Positions 11,608 through 24,068 of a stretch of 31,837 nt of DNA are shown here, in pieces. Location of the stretch: positions 1 through 31,837 of the IMG/VR virus record IMGVR_UViG_3300045176_000024; one strand, written 5' to 3'. Both the position numbers and the translations under genes were made by a program. The notes beneath the pieces were generated by a model that was not told where the DNA came from, did no database searches, and saw only the letters and a program-made list of their open reading frames with translations. Every line of letters starts with the position of its first letter. Positions within the stretch are counted from its first letter, which is position 1. This DNA is from a virus (Duplodnaviria > Caudoviricetes).

Positions 11608-13956
11608 TCAGGCCACCACGGCCTTGGTGAAGGCGCGGTAGTCGGTCACCGCGCCGCCGTAGATGTGGCGCAGCTTGTAGGTCAGCTTGTCGGCCGCGAA
11701 CATGGAGCCCACCGTGGGCGAGTCCTGCACGAACAGGTCGGGCTCCTGCTGGCCGTCCATGAAACCGATCTCGATGCCGGGGATGTCAGCCGGATCGGCG
11801 GCGGTGCACCAGTCGTTGGCATCCGCCCAGTACCAGACCGGGATGATGTTCATCGTGAGCGACTGGATGAACGTCTTCTCGTTGTTGGTGGACAGCTTGA
11901 ACAGATCGACTGCGGCCTCCTGCAGCTCCACCGGCACGACCAGGCGCGAGGGCGTAATGCCGATGCGGTCGTTGCTCGACAGCTCGGTCTGCTTGAGCAT
12001 CGCCAGCCGGTGCGCCGCGAGCTGCGCCTTGTCCAGCGCGGCCGTGAACAGGTTGCCGTGATCGACGTGGAACAGCGCCTTGGCGTCGTAGATCACCGGA
12101 TTGGTGCGCAGGAAGTCGAACACGAACTTGGCGAGCGTGCGCTTGGCGGCGCGCGAGAGCTTCGTGGGAATACGGCGGATCGCGCCCACGTCGTCGTTCT
12201 TGATCATCTCCAGCGTCACGTCCTCGGTACCGCCCTTCTTGACCGCCTTGTAGGTGGCCTCTTCGTCGCTCGGGCTGGTCAGTGCCTGGTAGTCGGCGCC
12301 CTCGGCCACGGTGGGCAGATCGCCGTAGCCGCCCCAGCGGGTGCGGTGCTGCATGCGGAAGTCCGAGAGCGGCACCACGTTGACGATCTGGCGCCAGCCG
12401 TCGAAGTCCACCGCAGCGCGGTACTCGGCCAGCATGCGGCGTGCCACGCTGTCGCCCAGCACCTCGCCCAGCGAGGCACTGCCCAGCGATTCGACCAGGC
12501 GCGACTGGTCGCACTCGCGCAGGCGGCCGGTGACCAGGCGGTCGCCCGTCATCTCGAAATAGCACTCCTTGAAGGACTGCACGCGGCCGTGGTCCTTGTG
12601 GGTGGGGTCCCAGAAGGCATCCAGCATGTCGCGCATGGTCAGGCTGCGGTCGCCCACTGTGATCGCGCCATTGCCGAACATGGGCACGCGCACGGGGCCG
12701 CTTTCGGTCAGACGGGCGACATAGCCGCCCTCGGCCGTGATCAGCTCGCCCACGGCGGCCTCGGTGAGCCGGTCTGCGCCGGCCGTGGCGATCTGGGCCA
12801 CCAGGCGCTCTTTGGACGCCTGGGGCAGCTTGGCCGCGTTGATGCGCTCGCGGGCGGCGCCGCGCAGTTCGAAGACTTGCAGATCGGCGCGGGTCAGCGG
12901 GGCGCTATCACCCTGGTTCTGGCCCTGGGCCTCGGCCACGCGCTGGGTGCCAGGCTCAGGCACCAACGGGCCGCACACGGCCTCGTGCAGGGCGACCACC
13001 TCATCGTCGGTGATCGTGTCCACGTTGATCGCGGCGTGCTTCGCCGGGTCTTTGGCCTTGACGGCCTCCAGCATGCGTTGCTTCCAGAGAGGCATTGCTT
13101 CTTCCTTGGGGTTGGTAGAGGGATCGGCGGCGGCTTCGGTCAGACGATCCAGGCCGCCGCCAGCGCCCGGCTCGACGATCAGATCGACAGAGACCACCTT
13201 GGTGAACTTCACCGCCTCGGTGAGGCGTTCCTTGCCCACCTGGCGGGGCTTGGTACGCGCGAAGGCGTCGATGGACAGGCCCAGCAGGCTCTGCATGCCG
13301 CGCTTGACGGCCTCGACCATCTTGGTGACGGCCGCGTCGGTGGGGTCGATGGCCCGGAAGGTGCCCACGAGCGCGCCGGTGTCGGGCGTCTTGCCCTCGA
13401 CAAAGCGCACGCCGTAGATGCCGCCGATCAGGCTGCGCACGTCCTTGCCCTTGCCGGCCAGGTGGTCGGCATCGCTCTTGGCGAACACGCGCACGCCCTC
13501 GAACTGGGGCGCAGCCTCGCGCAGCGTGGCATCGGGGTAGTAGTTGCGGTTGCCGCTGCGGCCGGCCTTGACGATGGTGACCTCGATGGAGCCATCGGCC
13601 GCTTCGCGGAACACCGCCGCCGCATCGAGAGCGGCACTCTCGCGCACCGCAGCGGCCGGCGCGGGTACGGTGCCCACGGGCGCATAGTCCGCCACCACCT
13701 CGGCCGCATCACCCAGCGCCACGGTGTTGTCCGCCGCGACGGTGTAGGCGTAGCTGTACAGGCGCCCCTTGAACGCCACCACCACGCGGTCGGGCCAGAT
13801 GCCACGCACGTCCACGTAGTAGTCGCCATTGGCCGACAGGCGCAGCTTGTCGCGTACGGCCTGGCGCACTAGGTCGATGAGCTGGCCGTACTCGGTGGTA
13901 ACAGCCTCGGTGAGGCGTGCGTAGCCGGTGCCAGCGGGGAGGAGCTTCATCGGCAT
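11608..13956 (-). CDS. Fused prohead protease - scaffold - major capsid protein (C-terminal Mu gpT-like, 782 aa)
   Basis: Protease-like region (GRSGNRNYYP...H...GLSID...SVDLIVEPGAGG), a helical middle region, and a capsid-like C-terminal ~290 aa (LSDFR...LPTVAEGADY...VTLEMIKNDD...LFHVDHGN...YKLRHIYGG). Confidence 0.87.
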   Translation of the reverse strand: MPMKLLPAGTGYARLTEAVTTEYGQLIDLVRQAVRDKLRLSANGDYYVDVRGIWPDRVVVAFKGRLYSYAYTVAADNTVALGDAAEVVADYAPVGTVPAPAAAVRESAALDAAAVFREAADGSIEVTIVKAGRSGNRNYYPDATLREAAPQFEGVRVFAKSDADHLAGKGKDVRSLIGGIYGVRFVEGKTPDTGALVGTFRAIDPTDAAVTKMVEAVKRGMQSLLGLSIDAFARTKPRQVGKERLTEAVKFTKVVSVDLIVEPGAGGGLDRLTEAAADPSTNPKEEAMPLWKQRMLEAVKAKDPAKHAAINVDTITDDEVVALHEAVCGPLVPEPGTQRVAEAQGQNQGDSAPLTRADLQVFELRGAARERINAAKLPQASKERLVAQIATAGADRLTEAAVGELITAEGGYVARLTESGPVRVPMFGNGAITVGDRSLTMRDMLDAFWDPTHKDHGRVQSFKECYFEMTGDRLVTGRLRECDQSRLVESLGSASLGEVLGDSVARRMLAEYRAAVDFDGWRQIVNVVPLSDFRMQHRTRWGGYGDLPTVAEGADYQALTSPSDEEATYKAVKKGGTEDVTLEMIKNDDVGAIRRIPTKLSRAAKRTLAKFVFDFLRTNPVIYDAKALFHVDHGNLFTAALDKAQLAAHRLAMLKQTELSSNDRIGITPSRLVVPVELQEAAVDLFKLSTNNEKTFIQSLTMNIIPVWYWADANDWCTAADPADIPGIEIGFMDGQQEPDLFVQDSPTVGSMFAADKLTYKLRHIYGGAVTDYRAFTKAVVA

Positions 13957-13962
13957 GGCCGC

Positions 13963-14211
13963 TTACTCGTCCTGGCTGGAGAGCTTCTGGCCGTCGCGGG
14001 TCACCACGACGACGTGCGTGCCGTAGTCGCGGCAGGACAGCACCTCGGCGGCCTGCACGGGCACTTCCTTGGCGCGCGCCACCTTGGCGCCGTCCTTGCC
14101 GTCCACCAGCTCGGTCACGGTGCGCTTGACGCGCTTGGCGGCTTCGGCAGCGGTGAGCTGCCTGGCCTTGCTGTCGCCCTGGGGCGGGTTTTGGTTCTTG
14201 TCCTCGGACAT
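13963..14211 (-). CDS. Hypothetical protein, first gene of the head operon (82 aa)
   Basis: RBS GGAG before the ATG, ends 6 nt before the capsid gene, phage-like codon usage. Confidence 0.7.
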   Translation of the reverse strand: MSEDKNQNPPQGDSKARQLTAAEAAKRVKRTVTELVDGKDGAKVARAKEVPVQAAEVLSCRDYGTHVVVVTRDGQKLSSQDE

Positions 14212-14252: not shown

Positions 14253-14310
14253 TGGAGGGACTGTGCCGGTGGGGGCACAAAAAACTAAGGCCGACATATG
14301 TCGGCCTGAA
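14253..14310 (-). promoter_or_regulatory. Putative late promoter / terminator element, copy 1 (head-tail operon)
   Basis: Perfect 20-bp palindrome AGGCCGACATATGTCGGCCT (14288-14307), then on the minus strand TAGTTTTTT and CACAGT. Near-identical copy at 22467-22524. Confidence 0.72.
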
Positions 14311-14383: not shown

Positions 14384-14902
14384 TCACTGCTTTGAATTTT
14401 GGCTAAGCGAGAACAACCCTTCTAGGGCCCGCTTCCCCTCGTCTTCCTGATCCACAAAAGTCTTAATAGTGTTCGCAGGAACCAATGTTAGAAGCACCGT
14501 CCACAACTGAAAAAGCGTCAAGGCTACAAGCACCCCATAGGAGATGCCACGGCACCATTCAACACTCAATGGCAGAGGATATTTTTTTGCAATGGGTGCG
14601 ATCAAACCAATCAACAGGATGGCGCCTAAGATAAGAGTCGAGTTCACGACAGGGCTAAAAAGTTGGCCGATCCCCGTTTCAGATGGAGCGCCATCCTTAC
14701 GAGGTTTGAAGGAGAGCTTCAAGCGTTCGGGATAGATGATCGCTAGCCACGCGCCGATTACGCCAAAAATAATGGCAGCAGTAGTGCGCAGCCCCTCAAA
14801 CATCGGCCACTGCTCCGCAAACGGGACATTCCGGCCGAGCCATCCCCCGGCGCATACCGCCACAAGAGCAAAAACCCAAGCCAAGACCCGCAACACGATC
14901 AT
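14384..14902 (-). CDS. Four-TM membrane protein (172 aa), candidate defence effector
   Basis: Four hydrophobic segments, visibly lower GC than the flanks, starts 4 nt after the upstream stop. Confidence 0.8.
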   Translation of the reverse strand: MIVLRVLAWVFALVAVCAGGWLGRNVPFAEQWPMFEGLRTTAAIIFGVIGAWLAIIYPERLKLSFKPRKDGAPSETGIGQLFSPVVNSTLILGAILLIGLIAPIAKKYPLPLSVEWCRGISYGVLVALTLFQLWTVLLTLVPANTIKTFVDQEDEGKRALEGLFSLSQNSKQ

Positions 14903-14906
14903 CCCT

Positions 14907-15926
14907 TCAGTTCATCAGACCGAGGAGGTAGGCTCGGTGGCGAGCCAATTCGTGCAGCAAGCTTTCTGGGCGCACCAGTTCCGCATTGTTTCTTTCGACG
15001 TCAAGCTCCAAGGTCTCACGTACAAACTCCTTTCCCAGCCAGTGCGTATGGGTGTCACCATGAAAAACAAACCCATAGTCTGAATCGTCCCGATCTTCCT
15101 CTCGCCATTGTGAAATGATCTCTTTGACTTCGTCCTTCTCCAGACCATCTACCTCAACCTGATACTTGATAGTTGCCTCTTGCTGAGCAGTTTTATGCTC
15201 GGCGAGGTGAACACCTTCCAGTAGTTTTTGAAAAAAACTTCTCTCTGGGCGTATGGCAAGATCAAGCCTCGTCTTCCTTTCCAACCTTCGGATACTCGAA
15301 GCATTTGCGAGGATTTGGTTAAGTGGTCCTGGCTTGACAAAAACCTCCGTCTTAAATCGCGCGCTCAGATGAACCGGATCGGAATTCCGGTCTGGTCGAT
15401 AGCCAACGATGGTGCGCTGACCGTCTGCGTCGGGTTCGCTGAACACCACGTAAGAAGTGAAGCGCTGAACAAAACACCGCATGTATTTATTCATCCCAGA
15501 CACACCGGTTGTCGGATGCTGAAACCGAACACTAGCCATCAGTCCGTTCTCGGGCAAAAACCAGAAATACGTCGCATGACCTGGAATGTGTCCTTCTTCA
15601 ACTTCAGTTTCTGACACATCCGCATTGCCGACTGCTGCCTGGCCATTTATAGAGGTAACAGTCCCATCCGTATTGTGGGACTCGTTCCACAAAGTTAGTA
15701 GCCAATCTGTACCACGTCGGGTTGCGTCTACGAGGTAGACCGGAAGGTGATTGCCGCCATCCTGCGGATCAAACGTTTTAGTGTGCGCTAGTTGCTTGCC
15801 GTTACCCCAACGCTTGAGATCTCGAAGAATGTCACTCTCCGCCCCGAACCGTGGATTCCTATGATCCCCTCTCGGGTAATAGCCGCATGACGCAACCTTG
15901 TACAAGGACACCTTCACCTGCTCCAT
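14907..15926 (-). CDS. Soluble hypothetical protein (339 aa), candidate defence sensor
   Basis: RBS GGAGG 7 nt before the ATG at 15926, lower GC than the flanks, no TM segments, forms an operon with the 4-TM gene. Confidence 0.8.
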   Translation of the reverse strand: MEQVKVSLYKVASCGYYPRGDHRNPRFGAESDILRDLKRWGNGKQLAHTKTFDPQDGGNHLPVYLVDATRRGTDWLLTLWNESHNTDGTVTSINGQAAVGNADVSETEVEEGHIPGHATYFWFLPENGLMASVRFQHPTTGVSGMNKYMRCFVQRFTSYVVFSEPDADGQRTIVGYRPDRNSDPVHLSARFKTEVFVKPGPLNQILANASSIRRLERKTRLDLAIRPERSFFQKLLEGVHLAEHKTAQQEATIKYQVEVDGLEKDEVKEIISQWREEDRDDSDYGFVFHGDTHTHWLGKEFVRETLELDVERNNAELVRPESLLHELARHRAYLLGLMN

Positions 15927-15961
15927 CACCGTGCCTCCGCTCCAGTTTGTTGGGGTGGGGC

Positions 15962-15989
15962 ATTACATCACGACACAACCCGCTTTAAA
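15962..15989 (-). promoter_or_regulatory. Possible sigma70 promoter for the two-gene insert
   Basis: Minus strand TTTAAA-16 nt-TGTAAT with a TGn extension. Weak match only. Confidence 0.3.
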
Positions 15990-16077
15990 CCCCCTTTAAA
16001 TCAGCCGACAAGGCCCCTAAGCAGGTGATCCCAGGGGGTTGCCGCATCGAAGCGGTTTAAACGCTCCTAGCGCCCCC

Positions 16078-17001
16078 TCATTCCTTTCGCCTCCCCGCCC
16101 TCTTCGCTGCATGGTCCAGGGCGGCCTTGCGCCCATCGAGCTGCAGTTCGCGCTTCGTGAACGGCTTGGCCCCCGGCGTCATGACCTGCCAGGTCTTGAG
16201 CCACGGCAGCGCGATGCACCCGCAGTGGATCACCTGCTCTGGCGGGGCCTTGGGATCGTGGGGGCACTGCATCATGTCGAAGCCCCCGCCAGGGTTGGGC
16301 ACCTTGAACGCCTTGCCGGCTTCGACCACCTCGCCATCCATCAGGTCATGGTTCCAGCGGCTGTGTATCTTGCCGCTGCGCCGCCACTGCTTGCCCAGGC
16401 CCGGCACCAGGGGCGCGGCCTGCACCAGGCGCTCCTTGCCTGCCACCGCGAAAGCCCGGCTGACCTCGGTGTTCACGATGCTGGTGGCCCGCTTGGTGGA
16501 GTCGGCGGCCAGGATGGCCTGCACGGTCTTGATGGCCTGGAACGGCGTCACGCCGCCGATGGTGACCAGGCCGAGCTGCTGCCCGATCTTGGCCGCCGCC
16601 TCGGCTGTGACTGCGCGCATTCGGTCCACGCCGAAGGTCTGCATCGCCGCCAGGATGCGCGCGTCGAGCAGGCCCAGGCGCAGTTCCACGTTGTGGCCGA
16701 TAGCGGCCAGTGGCTTGTCCACCACGTCCTCGCCCTGGGTCCATCCCTGGCGCAGCGCCTGGCTGACGGAGGCGCCCGCCTGGTGGCCCGTGGCGGTCAG
16801 GACGGTGTCGAGCTGGTCACGCAGCCGCGTGAGCTGCCACTGTTGCCAGTCGGCGGGCTGGGCGGCGAGCTGCTGCGAGATCTGCACCCACGCCTCGCGC
16901 AGCAGGGCCACCACGCCCTGATTGGCGCCGAGCAGCAGCCGGGCGCGCTCGGCCAGGCGTTCCTTTAAAACCGCCTCGAAGCGCTTCTGCTCGGGCGTCA
17001 C
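16078..17001 (-). CDS. Minor head morphogenesis protein (Mu gpF / SPP1 gp7-like, 307 aa)
   Basis: GTG start overlaps the portal stop. RATSIVNTEVSRA...KQWRRSG...H...DGE...PHDP...IHCGC motifs. Confidence 0.85.
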   Translation of the reverse strand: MTPEQKRFEAVLKERLAERARLLLGANQGVVALLREAWVQISQQLAAQPADWQQWQLTRLRDQLDTVLTATGHQAGASVSQALRQGWTQGEDVVDKPLAAIGHNVELRLGLLDARILAAMQTFGVDRMRAVTAEAAAKIGQQLGLVTIGGVTPFQAIKTVQAILAADSTKRATSIVNTEVSRAFAVAGKERLVQAAPLVPGLGKQWRRSGKIHSRWNHDLMDGEVVEAGKAFKVPNPGGGFDMMQCPHDPKAPPEQVIHCGCIALPWLKTWQVMTPGAKPFTKRELQLDGRKAALDHAAKRAGRRKE

Positions 17002-22541: not shown

Positions 22542-23000
22542 CTACGGTAGCACGGCCCGGCTCGCACGGTCAACACGTGCGCGCTTGCGCCAGACCCATG
22601 GCGCGATGGGGGCCGCGTCTTGCCAGAGCCCCACGCCCGCCGCGCGTGCCGACTCCTCCAGGCGCTTGATCTGAGGGTCCGTGAGGTACTCGGTGTATGC
22701 CCATGCCAGGCCTGCACGCACCTGGTGGGCACTGGCATCAGTGCCCTCGCACTCGACGCGCGCCACGGTACGGCGGTAGCGATCGGTTTTAAGCGGGGTG
22801 AGGCGAGCCCAGGTTTTAAAGCACAGCTTCGCCAGGTGCTGGCGCGACACGTTGCCAAACGGCTGCTTGCGCTCAGGGGCGTCGATCTCTGCCAGGCGCA
22901 CCTTGACTTGCTGGTACTGGCCGGGATCTCCGCAGCGTGCGGTCAGTGTGTCGCCGTCAGCGATGGCCACGACCAGGCAGAGTGCAGTCGCGGTGATCAA
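22542..23000 (-). CDS. Thermonuclease (SNase) family protein (152 aa)
   Basis: DGDT, VRLAEIDAPE, QPFG, DRYRRTVA, GLAW and GLW motifs. TTG start overlaps the upstream stop. Confidence 0.9.
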   Translation of the reverse strand: MITATALCLVVAIADGDTLTARCGDPGQYQQVKVRLAEIDAPERKQPFGNVSRQHLAKLCFKTWARLTPLKTDRYRRTVARVECEGTDASAHQVRAGLAWAYTEYLTDPQIKRLEESARAAGVGLWQDAAPIAPWVWRKRARVDRASRAVLP

Positions 23001-23353
23001 GATGCAGATCGTGGCGAGATGAGTTGCTTGCCGTCGAGCGTCAGCAGCTTGATCCTGCCGCTATCTTCGTCAACGACACAGAGCGCAATCATCGCCACCT
23101 CATTCCCCAGGCCATTGCGCATCCTCACCATGCGAGAGTTCTGGTTCCACAGGTAGCGCCAGTCCGCGCCTCCACGCATTGCACCCACGTCGGGAATCAC
23201 AGCTGTTTCGGGGTCTCGGGCATATCCCTTCAATGCCTTCTGGCATATGCGCAATGCCGCTTCGTTCTTGATCGTCGCGCCCGGGCCTGCGGCCATTGCG
23301 GAGCCCAGACCAAGAGTGATAGCCAGCACAGCGACCGTCATCGTCTTTCTCAT
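22997..23353 (-). CDS. Secreted/periplasmic hypothetical protein (118 aa)
   Basis: RBS AGGAGG, Sec signal MRKTMTVAVLAITLGLGSAMA, two Cys in the mature part. Confidence 0.78.
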   Translation of the reverse strand: MRKTMTVAVLAITLGLGSAMAAGPGATIKNEAALRICQKALKGYARDPETAVIPDVGAMRGGADWRYLWNQNSRMVRMRNGLGNEVAMIALCVVDEDSGRIKLLTLDGKQLISPRSAS

Positions 23354-23363
23354 TGCCGCCCTC

Positions 23364-24068
23364 CTAGTTAAACGTCACGCCACCCCAGCGCACACGACCC
23401 AACACGGCGAAGTCACGCTGCGACTCATCGTCTGACCCATCTATCTCGAAAGGTGCGTACTCCGAATTTGCACTGCTAACCCGCAACACCTTGCCGGGTA
23501 GCCGTTGTAGCTTCTTCAGCATCAGCGCCCCATCCAGACGGATCGCATGGATGCCTTCGGTGTGCACGTCGTTGTCGCGCAGATCGAGCATCGTGGTGTC
23601 ACGCGAGCGAAGTAACGGCTCCATTGAGTTACCCACAACGGACACCAACACGAGTTCGTTGTGTGCAATACCCAGTACGACGCGGATGAATGCGGCCTCA
23701 AAGGGCCGCATCGCGATCACCTGCTCCACATCGCAGAAGACTCCGTTGCCTGCTGAGACGGAGACGTCAAAGTGGGGCACGTACACGTACTCTCCCGATT
23801 CCACGGCATGCACGCTGCGCTCCACCTTCGTGGATCGCACCTCTCCCGTAAGCAGCCATTCGGCCGGACAGCGCCCGGCCTCAGCCATGCGCAGCAGCGC
23901 AAAAGCGTCAGGGACAGTGAGCCCTCTCTCGAATTTCCCGATGGTGTTGACGTGGAGATCGAGCTTGCGAGCGAACTCTTCCCTGGTCATGCCACTTCGG
24001 CACGACCGAATTCGCTCTCCAAGGGACGCTGCATAGCTGTCCCGAAGTTCATTGCTAGGTCTGTCCAT
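23364..24068 (-). CDS. Prophage repressor, XRE HTH plus S24 peptidase (CI-like, 234 aa)
   Basis: HTH (TREEFARKLDLHVNTIGKFERG), Ala-Gly site in VSAGNG, catalytic GNSMEP and LKKL. Divergent from ner. Confidence 0.92.
   Translation of the reverse strand: MDRPSNELRDSYAASLGERIRSCRSGMTREEFARKLDLHVNTIGKFERGLTVPDAFALLRMAEAGRCPAEWLLTGEVRSTKVERSVHAVESGEYVYVPHFDVSVSAGNGVFCDVEQVIAMRPFEAAFIRVVLGIAHNELVLVSVVGNSMEPLLRSRDTTMLDLRDNDVHTEGIHAIRLDGALMLKKLQRLPGKVLRVSSANSEYAPFEIDGSDDESQRDFAVLGRVRWGGVTFN

Follow-up and report, generated by a model that had tools for sequence, protein, structure and literature searches.

Gene pairs of the RexAB type are among the closest described counterparts of the locus considered here. 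Seventy years of work have not settled what triggers RexAB or how it acts (Rosendahl et al., 2026, PMC12894663). The same text describes RexABpp (PP_5643/PP_5644) from Pseudomonas putida prophage P1, in which the RexA-like member forms dimers and shows non-specific DNA binding. Its partner, a protein with four transmembrane segments (4-TM), stops growth and lets dye enter the cells, but does not depolarise them. This pair confers up to 1000-fold phage-specific defence that requires both genes, and a two-hybrid test did not detect contact between its two proteins. A further family, PDC-M18, is a PADLOC phage defence candidate, a class that consists of predictions as far as the available text states (Payne et al., 2024, 10.1101/2024.01.29.577857), and was regarded earlier as a possible distant RexAB homolog, one tested member of which gave no defence (Rousset et al., 2022, PMC9122126). 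Here we examine two adjacent open reading frames (ORFs A and B) in a linear virus record of 31,837 nucleotides (nt) (IMGVR_UViG_3300045176_000024; hereafter the window), which is estimated to be 59% complete. The window encodes a transposition protein, a CI-like repressor, an endolysin, a terminase, a portal, a gpF-like protein, a protease-capsid fusion and a tape measure protein. This set, with its transposition protein, CI-like repressor, and head and tail genes, indicates a Mu-like temperate phage. We find that the pair is a horizontally acquired PDC-M18 cassette residing in a variable slot of this phage.

Family membership was established by applying PADLOC at the level of its hidden Markov model library, profile by profile. 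ORF A yields six matches, all to PDC-M18A (best E value 2.1e-117, positions 1-337 of 339), and ORF B yields five, all to PDC-M18B (best E value 3.9e-70, positions 5-173 of 178). Both models are matched at full length, gene order and adjacency are the same, and there is no defining difference. Judged by these profiles, the cassette is a member of an already catalogued family, even though Pfam and NCBIfam scans of both ORFs return no match.

An earlier note on this DNA had presented the pair as a candidate new system whose proteins could not be placed in any family with confidence. That proposal is rejected, given the exact match of both proteins to PDC-M18 and a RexAB resemblance that was in print, along with a functional test, in 2022. 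The likeness to DUF4747/DUF6731 proteins suggested at the time also finds no Pfam match (PF15931 or PF20505) in ORF A or its distant homologs. What is left is a lead only: by language-model features the similarity is 0.93 to clusters that have DUF4747/DUF6731 in 15% of their members.

The proposed RexAB likeness, by contrast, stands as far as architecture and predicted fold are concerned. A structure search with ORF A ranks RexA first, and ORF A is predicted to adopt a RexA/RdgC fold, with a globular domain split between residues ~1-197 and 300-339 and a second domain inserted at ~200-298. No hydrophobic 19-residue segment occurs in ORF A, whereas ORF B has four, and the AlphaFold model of ORF B consists of four long helices with a predicted local distance difference test score of 91. 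Sequence profiles do not detect the relationship. Pfam RexA (PF15969) is unmatched by ORF A and by 19 of 19 distant homologs, while the lambda RexA control scores an E value of 1e-97; ORF B has no Pfam match to RexB, and hhalign assigns that comparison a probability of 0.4%.

The pairing of A and B is obligate. Among species-representative genomes, B is the gene immediately after A in 64 of 67 loci, and in the remaining three the contig ends within 241 nt; three of the 64 have a split or short B. Similarly, a sample of 401 genomes from the single genus Pseudomonas contains A in 12, each accompanied by B (one of these loci is L012). Co-occurrence of the homologues as a pair, which the earlier note had named as a test of its proposal, is observed in both samples. 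Gaps between A and B in related loci are mostly -13 to +19 nt, and the gap of 4 nt in the window makes translational coupling likely. The PDC-M18 variants have a median identity of 30%, and placing the family in the RexA fold provides a large and strictly paired set of variants with which the trigger and the contact surface between A and B could be mapped.

The best-supported model of function, which we consider moderately probable, is that the cassette serves the lysogen by excluding other phages in the manner of RexAB. If lambda RexAB and RexABpp are a guide, ORF A would dimerise to form a non-specific DNA clamp and might sense the replication of a narrow range of invading phages. ORF B would then assemble into a membrane oligomer, leading to membrane damage and a halted cell. 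Both the direction of signalling, from ORF A as sensor to ORF B as effector, and expression in the lysogen are modelled on those two systems. By damaging the membrane of cells under attack from other phages, the module would likely shield the neighbours of the infected host.

Three observations weigh against this model. ORF A lacks a compositional sign of DNA binding, its conserved columns comprising seven basic versus six acidic residues, and there is no evidence of cassette expression in this phage. The promoter of its own that had been suggested for the cassette is not apparent: a scan for sigma-70-like promoters finds none on the minus strand and one on the plus strand (0.9 expected), and the best site in a looser scan (TTTAAA-16-TGTAAT, 9/12) is missing the A that is conserved in the -10 box. 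Finally, the published test of a distant member, pFR81, showed no protection (PMC9122126). The accessible part of PMC11754643 (Table 2) equates PDC-M18 with P4 hotspot system 4, which is pFR81, 'RexA + 4TM', which Table S2B places among further systems that were assayed rather than among the validated ones (PMC9122126). We checked this link in E. coli ECONIH2, where WP_001335488, located between psu and int, matches the A profile (E value 2.4e-28, positions 4-336 of 339) and is followed by a match to the B profile (E value 6.6e-19). The pFR81 construct was assayed in E. coli under native promoters against eight coliphages, P2 and four P2-like phages, and such negatives can stem from poor expression, as exemplified by PARIS-1 (PMC9122126). 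The narrow phage specificity of RexAB-type systems would also account for the result. As the negative concerns a single distant member in E. coli, it suggests a retest in native-like hosts.

The fold and pairing evidence is also compatible with reversed roles. In that case B would act at the membrane as a sensor or tether and keep A inactive, and A, once released, would be the effector, clamping DNA so that phage replication or transcription is blocked. We regard this arrangement as unlikely, yet it is the strongest of the alternatives. Kiwa may offer a parallel. However, Pfam and PADLOC scans reveal no match to KwaB (DUF4868), KwaA or any Kiwa model. The KwaB fold does not figure among the structural matches listed for ORF A. 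According to the accessible text of Rosendahl et al. (PMC12894663), the effector of the Butters pair (gp30/gp31) is the RexA-like cytosolic protein, whereas the membrane protein is the effector in two proteobacterial RexAB-type systems. A structure search with ORF B gives no informative match to a pore, although its conserved polar residues within or beside the helices (E36, R39, S88, R118 and Q132) are compatible with, but do not prove, a pore lining.

Alternatively, the pair might chiefly tune the lysis-lysogeny switch or the host energetics of its carrier, with exclusion as a by-product, as Adams et al. discussed for lambda RexA. Ps59 and Vibrio phage PE002 carry the pair inside the repressor operon, where it comes after the repressor gene and has the same orientation, and the negative defence test is also consistent with such a role. 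An accessory gene at the corresponding position of the B3-like phage Fc02 is transcribed in the lysogen, as described in the available part of PMC9936078, which by analogy gives indirect backing to expression in the lysogen for the Ps59 copy alone. Several findings make a tuning role improbable. The cassette in the window is far from the repressor and is absent from nearly all related phages (see below), RexABpp had no effect on its own repressor promoter in the accessible portion of the report (PMC12894663), and homologs also occur beside restriction-modification, integrase and housekeeping genes with no repressor. In a tally of 241 neighbouring ORFs, the two nearest on each side, 8 of the 67 loci have a restriction-modification gene nearby and 17 a phage, integrase or transposase gene, with a union of 23; these are hand counts without a background control, based on a simple ORF caller that can choose wrong frames in GC-rich DNA. 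A is also present in seven phage records and five plasmids, and one homolog (L053:9774-11518) has an integrase on one side and, on the other, a reverse transcriptase with Avd, a pair of the diversity-generating retroelement type. Equally improbable is that the module targets plasmids, satellites or other mobile DNA rather than lytic phage, or is silent cargo here, since the lone test without defence and the lack of a clear promoter are countered by the intact genes, their good ribosome binding site and the signs of purifying selection, and nothing in the analysis points to plasmids.

The description of the locus in the earlier note was borne out in part: a two-gene unit for a soluble protein and a 4-TM protein, richer in AT than its surroundings, with a strong ribosome binding site and with flanking gpF and head genes, both of which are identified by profile matches. 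Coordinates are collected in the table.

Table. Features of the PDC-M18 cassette and its borders in the window.
Feature	Coordinates	Strand	Basis or status
ORF A, 339 amino acids (aa), PDC-M18A, predicted RexA/RdgC-type fold	14907..15926	-	ORF scan, PADLOC profiles, structure search
ORF B, 172 aa, PDC-M18B, predicted to have four membrane helices, with a charged tail at the C terminus	14384..14902	-	ORF scan, PADLOC profiles, AlphaFold
4-nt gap, ORF A stop to ORF B start	14903..14906	-	sequence, ORF scan
Shine-Dalgarno GGAGG, 7 nt ahead of ORF A ATG	15934..15938	-	sequence
Three TTTAAA boxes after gpF stop, left border of slot	15984..16061	.	conserved backbone
Terminator-like hairpin then T run, right border of cargo slot	14288..14307	-	kept in related phages
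gpF-like head morphogenesis gene, upstream flank (phrog_2468, E value 2.5e-19)	16078..16983	-	profile match
Downstream flank: conserved 82-aa ORF (14211-13963), then fused protease and major capsid gene (13956-11608)	11608..14211	-	profile match

The composition of the cassette is foreign. Its G+C content (GC) of 0.515, compared with 0.667 for the window, makes it the most AT-rich 1.5-kb stretch of the record, and GC at third codon positions is 0.53 and 0.58 in the two genes versus 0.90 in the gpF, capsid and terminase genes. The ATG start of ORF A gives 339 aa, and a GTG one codon upstream would give 340. Codon-position differences from its homolog in the related phage contig L093 number 87, 57 and 230 at positions 1, 2 and 3, a pattern that indicates purifying selection. 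Where close relatives of ORF B are named, they belong to Acidovorax or further Comamonadaceae, which hints at a host group only. A second lower-GC stretch (22542-24068) occupies the accessory position of the repressor operon, where two ORFs come after the CI-like repressor in the same orientation, one of 118 aa that belongs to no family and one of 152 aa that resembles nucleases. In the downstream flank, protease and major capsid protein are joined in a single 782-aa ORF.

The slot itself is variable. From related phages among viral contigs we recovered 55 distinct gpF-to-head intervals of 58 to 3683 nt, and A and B are absent from 53; the two carriers are the present phage and L093, which share 67% identity in A and 76% in B. 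The borders were compared across the 37 closest distinct intervals using loose patterns without a shuffle control. The slot is empty (313 nt or shorter) in eight. The hairpin plus CCTTA is found in 35, whether or not cargo is present, so the hairpin reported earlier does exist and is part of the phage backbone rather than specific to the cassette. At least two TTAAA boxes are found in 32. The gpF gene ends at 0.45-0.55 along the contig in 10 of 14 contigs of at least 35 kb (hand arithmetic; loci L089-L117 carry boxes). In Mu, a gyrase site sits between genes G and I. By analogy, the TTTAAA boxes may be a counterpart of this site, which the accessible part of PMC10052514 describes as strong and located at the genome centre.

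The interval had also been called an accessory hotspot. It is indeed a variable accessory slot, whereas defence-hotspot status goes beyond the cargo evidence: among 71 of 85 ORFs scanned, after near-duplicates and tiny ORFs of empty intervals were dropped, one has a full-length PADLOC match, to PDC-S54 (L151:4261-5538), and the others have partial helix-turn-helix (HTH), IrrE, ParA or SMC matches, or none. Other cargo of the slot includes an 880-aa SMC/AAA ATPase (L167:2327-4969) and a ParA-like ATPase (L096:6054-7121). Small HTH and/or IrrE/ImmA-like (CapH/CapP-like) genes, which represent a type of DNA-damage-responsive regulator, recur in L103, L104, L110, L113 and L137. In L109 (6061-7483) the slot holds genes for 313 and 148 aa that match no Pfam or PADLOC family and are unlike A, a candidate for an unrelated two-gene module.

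A broader and, in our view, doubtful proposal is that PDC-M18 forms a separate, widespread branch of RexA/RdgC DNA clamps (in Pseudomonadota, Bacteroidota/Balneolota, Spirochaetota, Cyanobacteria and Campylobacterota), in which the clamp itself would be the anti-phage effector tethered by its 4-TM partner. The Mu-like family would insert cassettes of this kind into a central slot that has constant borders, the TTTAAA boxes and the hairpin, and the mostly unannotated cargo of the slot would be an unmined pool of defence or counter-defence genes. The discovery itself is modest: the genes are real, the family is already catalogued, its likeness to RexAB was noted in 2022, and the sole published functional test of a relative was negative.

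Compared with known systems, the cassette shares family and 4-TM partner with pFR81, which is from a distant subfamily (23% and 22% identity) in a P4 satellite and was tested without robust defence. The protein ends of RexABpp, as read from primers in the accessible part of the paper, are unlike those of all 12 Pseudomonas-genus PDC-M18 pairs, so RexABpp is probably a separate lineage. The Sbash gp30/gp31, CarolAnn and Butters pairs likewise join a cytosolic and a membrane gene in a temperate phage, whereas Sbash gp30 and gp31 have no profile similarity to ORFs A and B. Lambda RexA/RexB differ in having no detectable sequence similarity and in length, A being 60 aa and B 28 aa longer here, and the present cassette lies outside the repressor operon, 7.4 kb from the CI-like gene (23364-24068). 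Both are nevertheless cargo of a temperate phage, with a RexA fold (predicted here) of split globular and inserted domains and a 4-TM partner directly downstream. By sequence the cassette is not a member of lambda RexAB, yet it probably functions like RexAB.
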